From the UHGV virus genome UHGV-1406243: a stretch of DNA of 11,436 bases; one strand, given 5' to 3'. Below the pieces are notes generated by a model. That model did no database searches, was not told the DNA's origin, and was given only the letters and a program-made list of their open reading frames with translations. The DNA comes from a virus. Of the stretch, positions 1 to 11,436 are shown in pieces. Every line of letters starts with the position of its first letter. The stretch's first letter is position 1. Position numbers and translations under genes: made by a program.

Positions 1-9
1 ATAACAGCA
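1..9. repeat. 9-bp direct repeat ATAACAGCA, identical to 11428..11436; candidate att core or target duplication
   Basis: Exact 9-mer at both window edges. Too short to be significant alone and may reflect how the window was cut. Confidence 0.3.
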
Positions 10-95
10 TTTTATCATTTAGTGTTTTTTGCTGTTTCATAATGTTTCAGGCTGTGCATTATGTTTTTGATTATCAACAGATTTGTGATTTTCCT

Positions 96-161
96 TGTTC
101 CAGCTTGTTTCACGTTGTAGCCCTTTGTGCAACGATCGGTGTAGTCACTGGTGTAGTCACT
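96..161. repeat. attL-side arm region: TTGTTCCA..CACGTTGT followed by tandem 12-mers GGTGTAGTCACT x2 (138..161); imperfect direct copy at 11299..11355
   Basis: CGGTGTAGTCACTGGTGTAGTCA is read directly at 137..159 and again at 11331..11353 in the same orientation, each preceded by a TTGTTCCA/CGTTGT motif. Candidate integrase arm-type binding sites. Confidence 0.5.
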
Positions 162-184: not shown

Positions 185-1399
185 GTGAGCAGAGCAATGA
201 ACAAACTGAGCGATACCTTGCTAAGGAAACTTCATGGTAAGCCAGCGGAGAAAAACACGTTTTATAGTGATGGCGGAAACCTGAGCGTGAAATATTTAAC
301 ATCAGGGAAATTGACCTGGTATTTCACATACAGGGCCGGAACGGGAAGGGAGACACGACCCGAACGCATTAAGCTGGGAAGTTATCCTGATCTGAGCCTG
401 AAAGCAGCCAGGGAAAAAGCCGCACAGTGTCGCACATGGCTGGCTGAGGGGAAAAATCCACGTCATGAGATGAATTACACCGTACAGGAAGCGTTAAAGC
501 CCGTAACGGTTGGCGATGCGCTCACCTACTGGCTTGAGTATTACGTAAAGGAAAACCGCGTGGATTATATCGCCCTGAAAAGGCGACTTAATAATCACGT
601 AATACAGCAGATTGGTGCTATGCCGCTGGATAAATGCGAGCTACGGCACTGGCTGGCCTGTTTTGACCAGGTGGTAAAGCGAACGCCTGTTACTGCCGGA
701 TTCGTGCTACAGGCGTGCAAACAGGCGCTTAAGTTCTGCCGTAGGCGGCGCTATGCAATCAGCAACGTTCTGGACGATCTGAACGTTGCGGACGTTGGGA
801 AAAAACCGGATATAAGCGAACGTGTCTTAAGTAACAAAGAACTTGGCGAATTATTGCAGGCACTGGACAAAAAAATATTCTCCCCTTACTACGTCGCGTT
901 AATCCGCCTCCTGATTGTCTTCGGAGCCAGAACGGTAGAACTGAGGTTATCGGAGATCGGGGAGTGGGATTTTACGGAAATGCTATGGACCGTTCCGAAG
1001 GAGCACAGCAAAACGAAGGTCGCAATATTCCGGCCCATACCGGAAGCGATCCTGCCGTTCGTCACGCAGCTGGTGGAGCAGAACAGGCACACGGGCTTAT
1101 TGCTGGGGGAAGTGAAACAGGAGGCCAGCGTATCGCAGTATGGAAGATTAGCGCACAGGAGGCTTAATCACCCTCACTGGTCACTGCATGACATCCGGCG
1201 CACCTTTACAACCATGCTGAACGATTTAGGCGTTGATCCGCATGTCGTGGAGCAGCTTACAGGCCACCAGATGCCAGGAATGCAGCGAGTTTATAATCAT
1301 TCCCGTTATCTGTTTTCAGTATGCGCATCTAGCGAATCACTCTTTAAAGAGCGAGAAAAAAGGCATGGAACAATATTTTATGCCTTTGTATTAACATGA
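185..1399 (+). CDS. int: Tyrosine recombinase / site-specific integrase, P4-type
   Basis: 404-aa ORF. The N-terminus (LRKLHGKPAEKNTFYSDGGNLSVKY..LGSYPDLSLKAAREKA) matches the P4-integrase arm-binding domain pattern. The C-terminus carries HDIRRTF..LGH..VYNHSRY catalytic-type motifs (His-x-x-Arg and terminal Tyr). GTG start at 185 is 5 nt after GAGGGGG; an alternative ATG lies at 197. Confidence 0.9.
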   Translation: MSRAMNKLSDTLLRKLHGKPAEKNTFYSDGGNLSVKYLTSGKLTWYFTYRAGTGRETRPERIKLGSYPDLSLKAAREKAAQCRTWLAEGKNPRHEMNYTVQEALKPVTVGDALTYWLEYYVKENRVDYIALKRRLNNHVIQQIGAMPLDKCELRHWLACFDQVVKRTPVTAGFVLQACKQALKFCRRRRYAISNVLDDLNVADVGKKPDISERVLSNKELGELLQALDKKIFSPYYVALIRLLIVFGARTVELRLSEIGEWDFTEMLWTVPKEHSKTKVAIFRPIPEAILPFVTQLVEQNRHTGLLLGEVKQEASVSQYGRLAHRRLNHPHWSLHDIRRTFTTMLNDLGVDPHVVEQLTGHQMPGMQRVYNHSRYLFSVCASSESLFKEREKRHGTIFYAFVLT

Positions 1400-1456: not shown

Positions 1457-1486
1457 TTGACATTCATCACTCTAGCGGGAACAATA
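1457..1486 (+). promoter_or_regulatory. Putative sigma70 promoter for alpA (perfect -35 TTGACA at 1457..1462, weak -10 near 1480..1486)
   Basis: Consensus TTGACA hexamer is read directly; the downstream -10 is only approximate (AACAAT/ACAATA). The TTG at 1457 that opens the 89-aa ORF in the track is part of this hexamer. Confidence 0.35.
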
Positions 1487-1537
1487 CGACACAATAAGAC
1501 ACCTGATGACTCTTTAAGAAACGAAAGGGGGGCAATA

Positions 1538-1726
1538 GTGTTAAGCACTGATCGGTTTATACGTGAAAAAGAATGCGAAAAACTAACCGGCCTTAGCCGT
1601 ACGTGTCGCTACCGCCTGGAAAAGGCCGGACAATTCCCATCACGTCGTAAACTTGGCGGTCGTTCCGTTGGCTGGTCTTTATCCGAGGTTCTGGCCTGGA
1701 AGGATAGCTGCAAGGCAGTTCATTAA
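1538..1726 (+). CDS. alpA: AlpA-family excisionase / transcriptional regulator (prophage CP4-57 regulatory protein family)
   Basis: The sequence DRFIREKECEKLTGLSRTCRYRLEKAGQFPSRRKLGGRSVGWSLSEVLAWK fits the AlpA/Xis MerR-like winged-helix pattern (hxxEVxxxTGLSRSTIYRLxxxGxFPxPxKLGxRxVxWxxSEVxxW). Start chosen at GTG 1538, 6 nt after AAAGGGGGG, because the longer ORF start at 1457 lies inside the promoter. Confidence 0.8.
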   Translation: MLSTDRFIREKECEKLTGLSRTCRYRLEKAGQFPSRRKLGGRSVGWSLSEVLAWKDSCKAVH

Positions 1727-3602: not shown

Positions 3603-3861
3603 TGATCGTTTTAATTCCCTGAAACAGGAATGTGATATTTACCACGAAACAATAGACCGCGCATTTCTTGCACTTTCTCACAGTGAAAACATGCTGGAAA
3701 TATTGCGCATATGGCTTGAAACACTTGGCGACAATGAACGCGACAAACAAAAATCAAGAATTGCCACGGCATTAATAACGCTTCTTGAGCCTGTAATAAT
3801 GGAACTGCAAGAAATAGATCTATTGCACGACAGATATAAAGAACAGCACACCGGAGAATAA
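3595..3861 (+). CDS. Hypothetical protein (88 aa)
   Basis: ATG 3595 is preceded by GGGGGG; 8-nt overlap with the upstream gene. Confidence 0.65.
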   Translation: MRDDRFNSLKQECDIYHETIDRAFLALSHSENMLEILRIWLETLGDNERDKQKSRIATALITLLEPVIMELQEIDLLHDRYKEQHTGE

Positions 3862-4166: not shown

Positions 4167-5917
4167 AACTGGCACCGAACGTAAAACAGCAGTCACGCGG
4201 CATAAAACACAAAGAAACAGAAGTCATTATTTTTGCGGGTAGTGATGCCTGGTCACACGCAAAACAATGGCAGGAACATGACGCGCGTATGGCCGGAGAT
4301 AATGAGCCTCCTGTGTGGCTTGGGGAGCAGCAGTTATCCGAACTGGATAAGCTGCAAATTGTGCCGGAAGGCAGAAAATCCGTGCGCATATTCAGGGCCG
4401 GATATCTTGCGCCAGTAATGATAAAGGCGATTGGTCAGAAGCTGGCGGCGGCAGGCGTACAGGATGCAAATTTTTACCCTGATGGTATGCACGGTCAGAA
4501 GGTGGAGAACTGGCGCGAATATCTGGCCCGTGAGCGCCAGAATCTTTCTGATGGTCTGGTCATTGAGCTTCCGGTAAAGCAAAAGGCGCAACTTTCGCAG
4601 ATGGCGGACAGTGAGCGCGCGCAGCTGCTTGCCGATCGCTTTGATGGCGTTTGCGTACATCCTGAAAGTGAAATCGTTCACGTATGGCGCGGCGGGGTAT
4701 GGTGTCCGGTCAGCACAATGGAACTTAGCCGCGAAATGGTGGCGATCTATTCAGAGCACAGGGCCACTTTCAGCAAGCGCGTAATCAATAACGCCGTGGA
4801 AGCGTTAAAAGTTATTGCCGAACCAATGGGCGAGCCGTCCGGCGATTTGTTGCCGTTCGCCAATGGTGCGCTTGACCTGAAAACGGGGGAATTTTCCCCG
4901 CACACGCCGGAGAACTGGATCACCACGCACAACGGCATTGAGTACACGCCACCAGCACCAGGGGAGAACATCCGCGATAACGCGCCAAACTTTCATAAAT
5001 GGCTTGAGCACGCAGCCGGAAAAGACCCGCGCAAGATGATGCGTATATGTGCCGCGCTGTACATGATTATGGCGAACCGGTACGACTGGCAGATGTTTAT
5101 TGAGGCCACCGGAGACGGCGGGAGCGGTAAAAGTACATTCACACACATAGCCAGCCTTCTGGCAGGGAAACAGAACACGGTAAGCGCTGAAATGACATCG
5201 CTTGATGATGCTGGTGGACGTGCGCAGGTTGTCGGGAGTCGTCTTATCGTCCTGGCTGACCAGCCGAAATATACAGGCGAAGGAACGGGCATCAAGAAAA
5301 TCACGGGCGGTGACCCCGTGGAAATTAACCCGAAATACGAAAAGCGTTTCACGGCGGTAATCAGGGCGGTGGTGCTGGCGACCAACAATAACCCGATGAT
5401 ATTCACCGAACGGGCCGGAGGTGTGGCACGTCGTCGCGTGATTTTCCGTTTCGACAATATCGTCAGTGAGGCCGAAAAAGACAGGGAGCTACCGGAAAAG
5501 ATCGCGGCTGAAATCCCTGTCATTATCCGCCGATTGCTGGCGAACTTTACCGACCCTGAGAAGGCACGGGCTTTACTACTGGAACAGCGTGACGGTGATG
5601 AAGCTCTGGCAATAAAGCAACAGACGGATCCGGTTATTGAGTTTTGCCAGTTCCTGAATTTTCTGGAGGAAGCACGCGGCCTGATGATGGGCGGCGGTGG
5701 CGATTCAGTGAAGTACACGACCAGAAACAGCCTTTACCGCGTCTATCTGGCGTTTATGGCGTACGCAGGCAGGAGCAAACCGCTAAACGTAAATGACTTT
5801 GGCAAGGCTATGAAGCCAGCCGCGAAAGTTTACGGACATGAATATATTACGCGGAAAGTTAAGGGAGTAACGCAGACTAACGCAATAACAACAGACGAGT
5901 GCGACGCGTTTTTATAA
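4163..5917 (+). CDS. Replication initiator: P4 alpha-like primase/helicase (D5-type SF3 NTPase domain)
   Basis: 584-aa ORF. Walker A GDGGSGKST and Walker B-like RLIVLADQ are read directly in the C-terminal half. Gene size and the iteron array immediately downstream match satellite Pri-Rep / P4 alpha proteins. The N-terminal primase domain was not confirmed motif by motif. Confidence 0.85.
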   Translation: MKLAPNVKQQSRGIKHKETEVIIFAGSDAWSHAKQWQEHDARMAGDNEPPVWLGEQQLSELDKLQIVPEGRKSVRIFRAGYLAPVMIKAIGQKLAAAGVQDANFYPDGMHGQKVENWREYLARERQNLSDGLVIELPVKQKAQLSQMADSERAQLLADRFDGVCVHPESEIVHVWRGGVWCPVSTMELSREMVAIYSEHRATFSKRVINNAVEALKVIAEPMGEPSGDLLPFANGALDLKTGEFSPHTPENWITTHNGIEYTPPAPGENIRDNAPNFHKWLEHAAGKDPRKMMRICAALYMIMANRYDWQMFIEATGDGGSGKSTFTHIASLLAGKQNTVSAEMTSLDDAGGRAQVVGSRLIVLADQPKYTGEGTGIKKITGGDPVEINPKYEKRFTAVIRAVVLATNNNPMIFTERAGGVARRRVIFRFDNIVSEAEKDRELPEKIAAEIPVIIRRLLANFTDPEKARALLLEQRDGDEALAIKQQTDPVIEFCQFLNFLEEARGLMMGGGGDSVKYTTRNSLYRVYLAFMAYAGRSKPLNVNDFGKAMKPAAKVYGHEYITRKVKGVTQTNAITTDECDAFL

Positions 5918-5929
5918 TTTTTTGTAATT

Positions 5930-6160
5930 GCTGTCTACCCTGTCTACCTGAGTAAAGAAAAATACATTTAATTCAGTGCATTAAGTTAGGTAGATAGCCT
6001 TTTTTTACTGTCTACCCACTATCTACCCTCTCTACCTGATTTTACCTGAATCAGACAGGGAGGTAGACACGGGGTAGATAGTGGATAAAAGCACTCTACC
6101 CCGCTGAAAGCCGCGCCATTACTGGTATGAGGGCCACTAAGGTAGATAAGGTAGACAAGG
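5930..6160. other. Putative origin of replication: iteron array of YCTACC / GGTAGAY motifs with dyad organisation; duplicated at 6379..6609
   Basis: At least 11 copies of the core (T/C)CTACC. Direct copies lie at 5933..6048 (TGTCTACCCTGTCTACCTG, TGTCTACCC, ATCTACCC, TCTACCTG) and inverted copies at 6061..6160 (GGTAGACAC, GGTAGATAG, GGTAGATAAGGTAGACAAGG), centred near 6055. It sits directly downstream of the primase gene. Confidence 0.55.
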
Positions 6161-6205
6161 GGAGGCACAACTCAAAACTTTTTAAACGAGGGGGTAAAAA
6201 TAAAT

Positions 6206-6262
6206 ATGCACACTTCAGGGAAATTTAATAAATCACTCAAAATGACTTTGGCAAGGCTATGA
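6206..6262 (+). pseudogene. Truncated duplicate of the start of the 92-aa gene (18 codons, then stop), created by the tandem duplication
   Basis: Same RBS and first 12 codons (MHTSGKFNKSLK) as the gene at 6655; the reading frame then runs into the duplicated primase 3' fragment and stops. Confidence 0.4.
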
Positions 6263-6654
6263 AGCCAGCCGCGAAAGTTTACGGACATGAATATATTACG
6301 CGGAAAGTTAAGGGAGTAACGCAGACTAACGCAATAACAACAGACGAGTGCGACGCGTTTTTATAATTTTTTGTAATTGCTGTCTACCCTGTCTACCTGA
6401 GTAAAGAAAAATACATTTAATTCAGTGCATTAAGTTAGGTAGATAGCCTTTTTTTACTGTCTACCCACTATCTACCCTCTCTACCTGATTTTACCTGAAT
6501 CAGACAGGGAGGTAGACACGGGGTAGATAGTGGATAAAAGCACTCTACCCCGCTGAAAGCCGCGCCATTACTGGTATGAGGGCCACTAAGGTAGATAAGG
6601 TAGACAAGGGGAGGCACAACTCAAAACTTTTTAAACGAGGGGGTAAAAATAAAT

Positions 6655-6933
6655 ATGCACACTTCAGGGAAATTTAATAAATCACTCAAAAAACGCAGAG
6701 ACAGAACAGAACCGAAATATCGCGCGTTAGACATGACAGAGCACGCTTTAAAGGTGGCAATCAGAACGATAGACCGCCACGCGGGGGAAGGATACGCGAA
6801 AGCACATCCCGAACTGATAAGCGCATTCATGACCACGACGGCGGCAAATTTTGCCACGCTGACAGAGCGGGAGATTGCCGAAGCGGAACAGGTAACAACC
6901 ATCAACGTTAAAACCGGAGAGGTGGAATCATGA
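6655..6933 (+). CDS. Hypothetical protein (92 aa)
   Basis: Strong RBS GAGGGGGT upstream; stop overlaps the ssb start (ATGA). Confidence 0.65.
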   Translation: MHTSGKFNKSLKKRRDRTEPKYRALDMTEHALKVAIRTIDRHAGEGYAKAHPELISAFMTTTAANFATLTEREIAEAEQVTTINVKTGEVES

Positions 6934-7368: not shown

Positions 7369-7390
7369 GCCGGAGCAATCCGGCTTTTTT
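7369..7390 (+). terminator. Rho-independent terminator after ssb (GCCGGA-gcaa-TCCGGC + TTTTTT)
   Basis: Hairpin and T-run are read directly. A near-identical hairpin recurs at 9810..9832. Confidence 0.6.
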
Positions 7391-7470
7391 ACGGGTCCTC
7401 CTGGCGGGGTGGGCCTGAACACGGGGCGGGAAGCGCGGAAAAAAGCGCATTTTTGTGATTTTATCGTCAT
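7388..7470 (+). other. Degenerate cos-like sequence (cosQ-like TTTACGGGTCCT, then ACGGGGCGGGAAGCGCGG in place of the lambda cosN core)
   Basis: Shares TTTACGGGTCCT and ACGGGGCGG with the cos at 9830..9900, but the 12-nt cohesive-end core is disrupted. Likely a relic or a divergent site. Confidence 0.35.
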
Positions 7471-7565
7471 CATCATCATGAGCGTAATTTATTGTTTTTA
7501 ATTGTTTTGATGCAAAAAAGATGATGGTTGTGGTTAATTTTCGTTCGACATCTTTGCAGGCAGAT

Positions 7566-9832: not shown

Positions 9833-9912
9833 ACGGGTCCTTTCCGGCATATGGACCCGTTACGGGGCGGCGACCTCGCGGGTTTTCGCTATTTATGACG
9901 TTTTTCCGTGAA
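9830..9912 (+). other. Lambda-type cos site: cosQ-like TTTACGGGTCCTTTCCGG, cosN with the 12-nt cohesive-end sequence GGGCGGCGACCT (9864..9875), and a proximal cosB with one R3-like element
   Basis: 40 contiguous bases at 9858..9897 (GTTACGGGGCGGCGACCTCGCGGGTTTTCGCTATTTATGA) match the junction of the lambda right and left ends as I recall it, and TTTACGGGTCCTTTCCGG matches the lambda right-end sequence. It lies about 90 bp upstream of the Nu1-like gene, as in lambda. Confidence 0.8.
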
Positions 9913-9965: not shown

Positions 9966-10400
9966 ATGATTGATAAAGCTTGTTTTGTAAGTCAGCAGGA
10001 AATAGCTGAACATTTCAAGGTTAACAGAACCACTATTCGCGCATGGACCAAACAGGGGATGCCGTATCTTAATGCGGATCGCGGAAAGTCTGGCGGTTAT
10101 CACATCGGGCATACATTGCTTTGGTCTTCAGGTAAAAGCCGTCTTGAGACCATCAGATATCACGTAGAAACCAGTGCGCTGGAAAAAATTATGTTTGCCA
10201 GGCTGCTTTCATCTGAGCGTGACGAGTACTCCAGTGAAGAAACAGAACATCGATTTGATGAAGGTTTGCAGATTTACGGCTATTCACCGGAAGATGTGAG
10301 CAAGGCACGAAATAAAATGGCTGGCTTTCTGGCTGGGTGGCGTCATGCCATAAGCGTTCGCCGTGCCAGCATGGAGCAATCAGCCGATACAGAACAGTAA
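9966..10400 (+). CDS. Terminase small subunit homologue, lambda Nu1-like N-terminal DNA-binding domain with a divergent, shorter C-terminal part
   Basis: VSQQEIAEHFKVNRTTIRAWTKQGMPYLNADRGKSGG aligns with lambda Nu1 VNKKQLADIFGASIRTIQNWQEQGMPVLRGGGKGNEV. 144 aa vs 181 aa; I could not align the C-terminal half to Nu1. Sits directly downstream of the cos site. Confidence 0.8.
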   Translation: MIDKACFVSQQEIAEHFKVNRTTIRAWTKQGMPYLNADRGKSGGYHIGHTLLWSSGKSRLETIRYHVETSALEKIMFARLLSSERDEYSSEETEHRFDEGLQIYGYSPEDVSKARNKMAGFLAGWRHAISVRRASMEQSADTEQ

Positions 10401-10568: not shown

Positions 10569-10570
10569 TC

Positions 10571-10654
10571 CCGAAAAATTTTCATAAATAGTGAAAACGC
10601 GCGAGGTCGCCGCCCCGTAACGGGCCATAATTCCAGGAAGGACCCGACGACACC
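10571..10654 (-). other. Second lambda-type cos site in inverted orientation (reverse complement of cosN AGGTCGCCGCCC at 10604..10615, with cosQ-like and proximal cosB flanks)
   Basis: The reverse complement of 10571..10654 reads GGTCCTTCCTGG..GTTACGGGGCGGCGACCTCGCGCGTTTTCACTATTTATGAAAATTTTTCGG, matching the lambda cos junction on both sides of cosN. It is an inverted copy of the cos at 9830..9912. Confidence 0.75.
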
Positions 10655-10967: not shown

Positions 10968-11012
10968 GCGACATACCGTGACGGAGAGTGACAACCAGTG
11001 ACACGCCGTGAC
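10968..11012 (+). repeat. Phased array of GTGAC pentamers at exact 10-bp spacing (10978, 10988, 10998, 11008, plus GCGAC at 10968)
   Basis: Read directly: aGCGACataccGTGACggagaGTGACaaccaGTGACacgccGTGACaaaag. Further GTGACC / GGTCAT motifs and the near-palindrome TGGTCATAATGACCA (11122..11136) follow downstream. Confidence 0.6.
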
Positions 11013-11298
11013 AAAAGACGGTTTAACCGTTAATTAAAAATTGACGGGATTTTGTGCTTTCCGGACGACGTGACCAACGTCATTTTTTAGCGAAAAGTTC
11101 TGATTAAGGTCATTGTCTGAATGGTCATAATGACCACTCCTACAAAACAGGTAAAGCCCACCAGCCTGATTAACAGTTAACCGGAAAAAAAATCCGGTAG
11201 CCCCGTTATGGGGATCCCCATATCAACATTAACGCCCCTCATGAATTAGCGCGCTTCCCCCTGGAAAGATGACCCGCCTGTATATTTCTTGTGTCTAT

Positions 11299-11355
11299 TT
11301 GTTCCACGTTGTTTCATACAGTGCACCGAACGGTGTAGTCACTGGTGTAGTCATT
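11299..11355. repeat. attR-side arm region: TTGTTCCACGTTGTTTCA followed by tandem 12-mers GGTGTAGTCACT / GGTGTAGTCATT (11332..11355); direct copy of 96..161
   Basis: CGGTGTAGTCACTGGTGTAGTCA is read at 11331..11353, identical to 137..159. Confidence 0.5.
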
Positions 11356-11427
11356 TTGCGATTTATGGCACTTTTTGTAGTGCAAATCATTTAATTAAAT
11401 CAATGCGTTAAGTGAAATTAGTTATAT

Positions 11428-11436
11428 ATAACAGCA
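11428..11436. repeat. 9-bp direct repeat ATAACAGCA, partner of 1..9
   Basis: Exact match to positions 1..9 at the opposite window edge. Confidence 0.3.

Follow-up and report, generated by a model that had tools for sequence, protein, structure and literature searches.

Introduction

The Gram-negative PICIs of the EcCICFT073 family share a gene plan of int, alpA, primase and capsid (PMC6092414), and the gene content of islands of the EcCICFT073 type is not that of P4-type elements (PMC6092414). For EcCI042 and EcCIK1516, the att site core was listed as ATAACAGCA and the att gene as tqsA (Table S1 of Fillol-Salom et al. 2018, PMC6092414); tqsA is also among the genes disrupted by prophage integration (Bobay et al. 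2013, PMC3603311). AlpA is an activator of its own promoter, and when it is over-expressed EcCICFT073 excises in an int-dependent manner (PMC6092414). The activity of Pint of EcCICFT073 was left unchanged by AlpA (PMC6092414).

The attP site of satellite P4 was described by Pierson and Kahn in 1987, as cited in PMC7286903. An int promoter that overlaps attL is associated with negative autoregulation in KplE1 (PMC2951348) and in P4 (PMC7286903). RDF sites are typically direct repeats spaced one helical turn apart, and RDFs such as Apl of 186 can bind both att and promoter DNA (PMC7498355). A full-text search of the searchable literature returned no description of arm-type sites of PICIs.

Here we analyse a stretch of 11,436 nt (UHGV-1406243), referred to as the window. 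We are largely confident that it is one complete integrated PICI of the EcCICFT073 family inside E. coli tqsA, and that its ends are attL and attR of a heterobivalent tyrosine integrase of the lambda/P4 type.

Results

Gene content and closest relatives

Pfam searches of the window identified an integrase, an AlpA protein, a D5_N/DUF5906 primase, a major capsid protein of the lambda E type and a gpD-like decoration protein, all encoded on the + strand within 11.4 kb. This is the plan of a Gram-negative PICI: int is leftmost, alpA and pri-rep are present, the genes run rightward, the size falls in the ~8-12 kb range and there are no tail or lysis genes. The att site is likewise PICI-specific, its core and target being identical to those published for EcCI042 and EcCIK1516. 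Among complete genomes, E. coli O18:H1 CFSAN067215 is the closest, with a chromosome that matches the full length of the window; 46 further complete genomes match at a coverage of at least 80%. In CFSAN067215 the element splits tqsA (ydgG): a C-terminal fragment of the gene remains to its left and an N-terminal fragment of 48 codons to its right.

No close DNA relative of the island was found in the phage collection, where only cos-like and short intergenic pieces match; the short matches to lambdoid phages are due to two cos regions in the window. The integrases of the same collection are at most 33% identical to that of the window, one Klebsiella record (50%) excepted. Rfam at gathering thresholds gave no match in the window.

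Several further features of the island were observed. An exact lambda-type cosN, GGGCGGCGACCT, is present at 9865-9876 (+) and 10604-10615 (-), and the surrounding lambda-type cos regions (9834-9911 and 10569-10646) form a 78-nt inverted repeat that is 82% complementary. The pair, which also occurs in the related loci L001 and L002, flanks an ORF (9966-10400) at the place where L002 has its small terminase gene. Indirectly, the cosN sequences and the occurrence of a relative in a viral-contig collection hint that the island may depend on a helper phage. A non-coding segment at 7386-7555, again without an Rfam match, shares 87-90% identity with regions of Stx-converting and VT1-Sakai phages that carry no annotation. 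Directly past the last ORF, ~415 nt left of the attR core, four GTGAC boxes follow one another with an exact 10-nt period (10978-11012; 0 expected in shuffles); this array is conserved in L001, L007, L010, L013 and L014, islands with differing integrase types. Downstream of the primase gene, inverted 16-mers (TACCCACTATCTACCC and GGGTAGATAGTGGATA) lie at 6013-6087 and 6462-6536, inside a duplicated segment. The replication origin probably lies here (about 5.9-6.7 kb), and the window would have it twice.

Compared with its closest RefSeq relative, the window carries three rearrangements and otherwise five substitutions. The first rearrangement (1313-1328) consists of two deletions, 242 nt in total, that left a 16-nt remnant, TTTTCAGTATGCGCAT; it replaces the last 33 residues of the integrase and removes the TTGT array of the int-alpA intergenic region. 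The second is a 193-nt deletion at 3631/3632 and the third (5791-6691) a tandem duplication of 449 nt (452 nt identical) that takes in the 3' end of the primase gene and the sequence downstream of it. The junction of the first rearrangement is present in no complete E. coli genome, and a circular relative from IMG/VR (L013) has none of the three. They may be genuine decay of this copy, or may have arisen as artefacts of assembly or editing. The integrase is identical to the RefSeq integrase at 375 of 376 positions through residue 376 and diverges thereafter, with catalytic Tyr370 retained and the last ~33 residues replaced. Since its C-terminal tail is altered, the window's copy may be inactive. 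An exact-protein look-up returned no record of this variant integrase; since the protein carries a point difference as well, this outcome is uninformative.

Island boundaries, target gene and circular form

The features of both ends are collected in Table 1. The initial annotation, made from the letters of the window alone, had noted the 9-mer ATAACAGCA at both window edges and proposed that the island boundaries lie inside the window. The 9-mer occurs at 1-9 and 11428-11436 and nowhere else in the window (0.17 copies expected per shuffle). Because the window was probably cut at this sequence, its position exactly at the edges is not independent evidence; that evidence comes from an empty-site comparison and from the circular junction.

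For the empty-site comparison, which the annotation had suggested, we built a 609-nt query from the chromosomal sequence on the left, a single ATAACAGCA and the chromosomal sequence on the right. The query matched intact tqsA of CFT073, ATCC 25922, ABU 83972 and others in one piece and at 100% identity. The junctions are therefore located exactly at the two copies of the 9-mer and not elsewhere. The annotation had held that core and chromosomal target could not be named from the window. Both can now be named, as ATAACAGCA in tqsA, and both had already been published. A tRNA was ruled out as the target: the window contains no tRNA or tmRNA, as had been noted for its ends, and the target is a protein-coding gene.

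Among 5426 genomes, tqsA is uninterrupted in 5166 and split in about 256. Integration truncates TqsA, and the gene is not restored; read along the tqsA strand, the junction is followed by in-frame stop codons on either side. A replacement N-terminus supplied by the island was considered and ruled out by an in-frame TGA and TAA directly upstream of the junction on that strand.

The annotation had also suggested PCR across the circular junction. We scanned IMG/VR for the predicted attP junction, TTATATATAACAGCATTTTATCA, and found it in one contig, the virome contig L013 (11,098 nt). The first 119 nt of L013 lead from the island right end through a single ATAACAGCA to the island left end and int, so that the P arm is on one side of the junction and the P' arm with int on the other. 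The same 119 nt recur at the end of L013, so that the contig can be closed into a circle of 10,979 nt. L013 is 97-99.8% identical to the window, and a circular attP with one core has thus been seen for a relative. The junction can be read as the in silico equivalent of the proposed PCR, and it would also arise from a concatemer or a tandem array.

Table 1. Positions of att-site and recombination features in the window
Feature	Position	Strand	Basis
attL core ATAACAGCA	1..9		Empty-site reconstruction; published core for tqsA PICIs; probable overlap 3-9
Candidate core-type Int site C' TTTTATCA, island side of attL	10..17	+	Left-end sequence kept in all relatives as TTTTATCA/TTTTATAA/ATTTATCA
Four TTGT boxes, exact 10-nt period (95, 105, 115, 125), P' arm	95..130	+	Candidate array for an AlpA-type excisionase/regulator, or further Int sites
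Putative P' arm-type sites P'1, P'2: GGTGTAGTCACT x2, 12-nt period	138..161	+	Holds the arm's longest invariant runs; position shared by all relatives; P4 layout
Tyrosine integrase with N-terminal arm-DNA-binding domain	185..1399	+	PF13356 Arm-DNA-bind_3, residues 8-95, E=2e-18; PF00589, residues 214-375, E=3e-16
AlpA-family winged-helix protein: PICI activator, candidate recombination directionality factor	1457..1726	+	PF05930 Phage_AlpA, E=1.5e-16
Three TTGT boxes, exact 10-nt period (11289, 11299, 11309), P arm	11289..11314	+	Phasing; 0.00 expected
Putative P arm-type sites P1, P2: GGTGTAGTCACT GGTGTAGTCATT	11332..11355	+	Longest invariant runs of the arm (6 loci); one pair per island end
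IHF consensus match AATCAATGCGTTA, between P pair and core	11398..11410	+	Sole WATCAANNNNTTR match in the window; at least one hit somewhere in 45% of shuffles
Candidate core-type Int site C TTATATAT, island side of attR	11422..11429	+	Aligns with TTATAAAT / TGATAAAA / CTATAAAT of relatives, immediately left of the probable overlap
attR core ATAACAGCA	11428..11436		Empty-site reconstruction; published core; probable overlap 11430-11436

Probable overlap region and core-type sites

Integrase genes that are 75-91% identical in DNA occur in islands at roxA(ycfD)/phoQ, yifB, abgR/smrA and cspD/clpS, where the terminal direct repeats are GGACATATTT, AATAGCGGAT, AATATCGTGA and ATGATAGTTAT, respectively. 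Three of these four repeats are published cores (GGACATATTT for ycfD-phoQ, ATGATAGTTAT for cspD-clpS and AATATCGTGA for lysR-smrA; Table S1 of PMC6092414). The cores of five target specificities were aligned by anchoring them on the conserved island-side TTTTATCA. Every block of identity covered the same 7 positions, with imperfect inverted repeats on the flanks. The inverted repeat is perfect in L002, where it reads TGATAAAA-GGACATA-TTTTATCA with a 7-bp spacer; that of the window, TTATATAT-7-TTTTATCA, matches at 5 of 8 positions. From this alignment we infer that strand exchange would take place in a 7-bp overlap, AACAGCA (3-9 and 11430-11436), between the candidate core-type sites TTATATAT and TTTTATCA.

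Tandem 12-mers in both arms

A 23-mer, CGGTGTAGTCACTGGTGTAGTCA, had been reported in direct orientation at both ends, and its tandem 12-mers had been labelled arm-type. Both copies are on the + strand (137-159 and 11331-11353); two exact occurrences of a 23-mer within 11.4 kb far exceed what chance would give. Perfect copies of its 10-mer GGTGTAGTCA are located at four places in the window and no others (138, 150, 11332 and 11344), and there is no inverted copy. Both 12-mer pairs are contained in a gapless direct repeat of 76 nt (88-163 and 11282-11357) that is 76% identical. The P' pair lies 128 nt right of the core, and 23 nt separate its end from the int start codon. In the P arm, the perfect 10-mer of P2 extends to 11353, leaving 74 nt to the core, and the 12-mers of both arms share the orientation of int.

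The arrangement is conserved in relatives. The sequence CGGTGTAGTyAnTGGTGTAGTyA is present in exactly one copy per island end in 7/7 loci with both ends in hand; the int-side pair of relatives starts 47-48 nt before the int start codon, and the other pair lies ~75-85 nt left of the right-hand core. Across six loci with five target specificities, 46% of the non-coding columns of the P' arm and 30% of those of the P arm are invariant. The longest invariant runs in both arms are the 9-mers (C/T)GGTGTAGT, i.e. CGGTGTAGT and TGGTGTAGT, spaced 12 nt apart.

L008 (Shigella) was the one locus obtained from a contig search with the integrase, and distant relatives were taken from E. coli and phage collections. 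More distant integrases, with N-domains that are 50-65% identical in amino acid sequence, are accompanied by tandem pairs of 12-nt period in the same place that have another sequence, changed alike at both ends. These are GTGTGGTCAGT x2 at both ends of L010 (N-domain 65% identical), GTGCAGTCAGT x2 at both ends of L012 (63%) and TGTATAAACA x2, found twice, in the Klebsiella record L011 (50%). Joint inheritance of attP and int as a compact module could produce such concerted change as well. Among the close relatives, the last bases of the 12-mer (TCAC vs TTAA) track the N-domain variant in the int-adjacent pair only, which linkage alone could explain; L003 has an N-domain of the TCAC type and a TTAA/TCAA P pair.

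In L011 (Klebsiella phage P12620-1, PQ569648.1, 106 kb), the integrase is preceded at 13725-13981 by two TGTATAAACA tandem pairs ~230 nt apart, and a terminator-like sequence between them resembles the E. coli yhdJ-fis intergenic target. This arrangement may be attP-like, or may represent two elements in tandem.

The tandem 12-mers are most likely docking sites for the island integrase. We consider this the best reading because the integrase has an arm-binding domain (Arm-DNA-bind_3), the repeats are invariant over five specificities, they change in concert in distant relatives and they share the layout of the arm repeats of P4; the earlier arm-type label is thereby supported. A likeness of the 12-mer to the lambda arm consensus (AGTCACT) was rejected, since the bases in question vary among relatives (TCAC/TTAA/TCAA) and the invariant part is GGTGTAGT; the partial resemblance of that consensus to GTAGTCACT is presumably a coincidence. 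A minus-strand ORF at 15-302 was also rejected as the cause of conservation, the second repeat copy having no ORF of at least 50 aa. This 95-aa ORF runs antisense across attL and the int start, where RefSeq has a 60-aa hypothetical protein (15-197). Since it overlaps the conserved binding-site region, the ORF is probably spurious.

For EcCIDI14, the 'att site core' was listed as CGGTGTAGTTAATGGTGTAGTTAATT (Table S1, PMC6092414). This sequence is the arm-type tandem repeat, and the interval published for the island extends from the P' pair to the P pair. In the corresponding locus (L014; E. coli clone D i14, NC_017652.1 249047-259688) the real ends are about 130 nt and 80 nt further out. The junctions of L014 are inside an IS110-family gene and share only GTGA (4 of 7 overlap positions), which points to a secondary integration site. 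The listed cores of the yejM-luxR PICIs and of NmCIFF6 are also tandem repeats, and these entries look like the same arm-for-core mistake.

Phased TTGT boxes, AlpA and IHF

Upstream of each 12-mer pair, the annotation had seen a TTGTTCCA/CGTTGT motif. The motif is present at both sites, with TTGTTCCA at 95-102 and 11299-11306 and CGTTGT at 113-118 and 11307-11312. Both arms carry TTGT boxes of exact 10-nt period (Table 1), and the two arrays are in register, the first box lying 44 nt before GTGTAG of the first 12-mer in either arm. In shuffles, the expectation for three phased TTGT boxes is 0.00, and the window has them in its two arms only. In 14 loci, each with about 20 kb of chromosome, phased TTGT boxes were confined to the att arms and one array beside int. 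This third array is inverted, lies directly downstream of the int stop and upstream of alpA, and is found in L001-L004 and L008; it is a candidate AlpA operator.

The inverted array of L001 (7460-7510) consists of 5-6 TTGT boxes with a 10-nt period and is absent from the window. In L001 and L002 it adjoins a perfect 16-bp palindrome, CAGTATGCGCATACTG. The cspD/clpS-type islands L005-L007 are without an int-alpA TTGT array.

The DNA-binding region of AlpA is conserved across the islands of relatives. Together with the one-turn phasing of the boxes and the excision triggered by AlpA, this leads us to propose, with moderate confidence, that AlpA binds the TTGT arrays. L002 has retained the IHF match that separates P pair and core in the window, and L003 and L004 have it with one mismatch. 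A scan of positions 1-400 for sigma-70 consensus promoters and terminators found none.

Discussion

The results suggest the following working model. Strand exchange would take place in the 7-bp AACAGCA, with the catalytic and core-binding domains of the integrase on the imperfect inverted repeat formed by TTATATAT and TTTTATCA. The N-terminal domain would bind the GGTGTAGTCA 12-mers in the P and P' arms and thus bridge the arms to the cores in an intasome, probably helped by IHF bending at 11398-11410. For excision, the AlpA-type winged-helix protein would most likely act as the excisionase on the phased TTGT boxes upstream of each pair. The int promoter would have to lie within attL, and integrase bound to the P' pair would probably also repress int, as in P4 and KplE1.

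The roles of the two motif classes might be swapped, the TTGT boxes serving as integrase arm sites and the 12-mers being bound by AlpA, another RDF or an int repressor. Both classes are conserved in both arms, the 12-mer pair just before the int start is in an operator position and TTGT boxes were present in every lineage examined, all of which would fit such a swap. However, it is the 12-mers that vary with the integrase lineage, whereas the TTGT boxes and the DNA-binding region of AlpA stay conserved. The annotated arm repeats of P4 are tandem pairs of 12-nt period at the same positions, arrays with a one-turn period are the signature of RDFs (PMC7498355), and a TTGT array without 12-mers between int and alpA fits a regulator rather than an intasome. 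We therefore consider a swap unlikely and retain the assignment of the 12-mers to the integrase.

It is much less probable still that the 76-nt repeat is a passive duplication, or merely a promoter or regulatory element of int, and that the 9-bp core suffices for recombination. One copy does lie directly upstream of int, and arm sites are dispensable for some tyrosine recombinases; but in the integrated state 11 kb separate the second copy from int, and no gene follows it. Every relative, over five or more target sites, has retained the repeat at both ends, while the spacers around it diverge. The dedicated arm-binding domain of the integrase also argues against a core-only system. Being short, direct and helically phased, the repeats resemble iterons, yet the likely origin, with inverted repeats of its own, is downstream of the primase gene (about 5.9-6.7 kb), the lambda-type cos sites are elsewhere (9865-9876 and 10604-10615), and the repeats flank the recombination core symmetrically in attP. 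A function as replication iterons or packaging signals is thus the least probable of the explanations, and the arm-site reading of the 12-mers is kept.

A more far-reaching possibility, which we put forward tentatively and judge rather doubtful, is that AlpA, as the helper-induced master activator, occupies all three TTGT arrays and is itself the excisionase, acting on both arms and on its own promoter, with the corollary that several published PICI cores are arm sites. If so, helper-phage sensing would be wired directly to excision, and the crossover sites and boundaries of EcCIDI14, the yejM-luxR islands and NmCIFF6 would need to be re-mapped. The conserved 12-mers and TTGT arrays are ready targets for testing how AlpA and integrase control PICI excision.

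The analysis sets the exact boundaries, the core, the probable overlap and the probable protein-binding sites of the tqsA satellite, and its value is mostly one of annotation. This satellite is common in E. coli and disables the AI-2 exporter gene tqsA in about 4-5% of complete genomes. Moreover, tandem repeats at island ends can pass for the crossover site, as in the published PICI table, where coordinates were shifted by roughly 80-130 nt.

Of the systems described before, EcCI042, EcCIK1516 and the EcCICFT073 family are the closest: they share the core ATAACAGCA and tqsA, the size class of ~11.4 kb and the rightward order int-alpA-primase-capsid (PMC6092414). The table of Fillol-Salom et al. 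2018 (PMC6092414) gives cores only and does not describe arm-type sites, and the three rearrangements of the window are absent from the relatives.

The integrase of P4 (NC_001609) has the same domain pair, PF13356 and PF00589, as that of the window. In the P4 record, 12-bp 'attP arm sequence repeats' are annotated on the int strand, in tandem pairs to either side of the core, which is the layout found here. The distances are similar: the P' pair ends 15 nt before the ATG of int in P4 and 23-25 nt before the start here, the core and the P' pair are 112 nt apart in P4 and 128 nt here, and the core and the P pair 53 and 74 nt. P4 Int represses its own promoter (PMC7286903). The two integrases, however, are only 20-26% identical, and the repeats differ (TGGGGGCATA in P4, GGTGTAGTCA in the window). 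P4 uses a 20-bp core in a tRNA-Leu gene and has extra inverted repeat copies at and within int, whereas the window has a 9-bp core in a protein-coding gene and no inverted copy.

In KplE1 and HK620 (IntS, TorI; Panis et al. 2010, PMC2951348), int is transcribed away from attL and its promoter overlaps arm-type and RDF sites, as would be the case here. The RDF gene of KplE1 is separate from int, like the candidate RDF gene of the window, and negative autoregulation is predicted for such a layout (PMC2951348). KplE1 differs in that it inserts in the tRNA gene argW, has an arm consensus containing TAAA and has had its sites mapped experimentally, whereas those of the window come from sequence comparison.

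Lambda attP (PMC2951348) has in common with the proposed organization a heterobivalent integrase, a 7-bp overlap between inverted core sites and arm sites in both arms, as well as IHF sites between arm and core and an RDF on phased direct repeats. Lambda has a different number and orientation of arm sites, and its Xis sites are confined to the P arm; placing RDF sites in both arms would depart from the lambda pattern. The locus raises no new principle of site-specific recombination: core, target and element family were already published, the arm architecture is that of P4, and the whole is an ordinary, well-formed att site of the lambda/P4 type.
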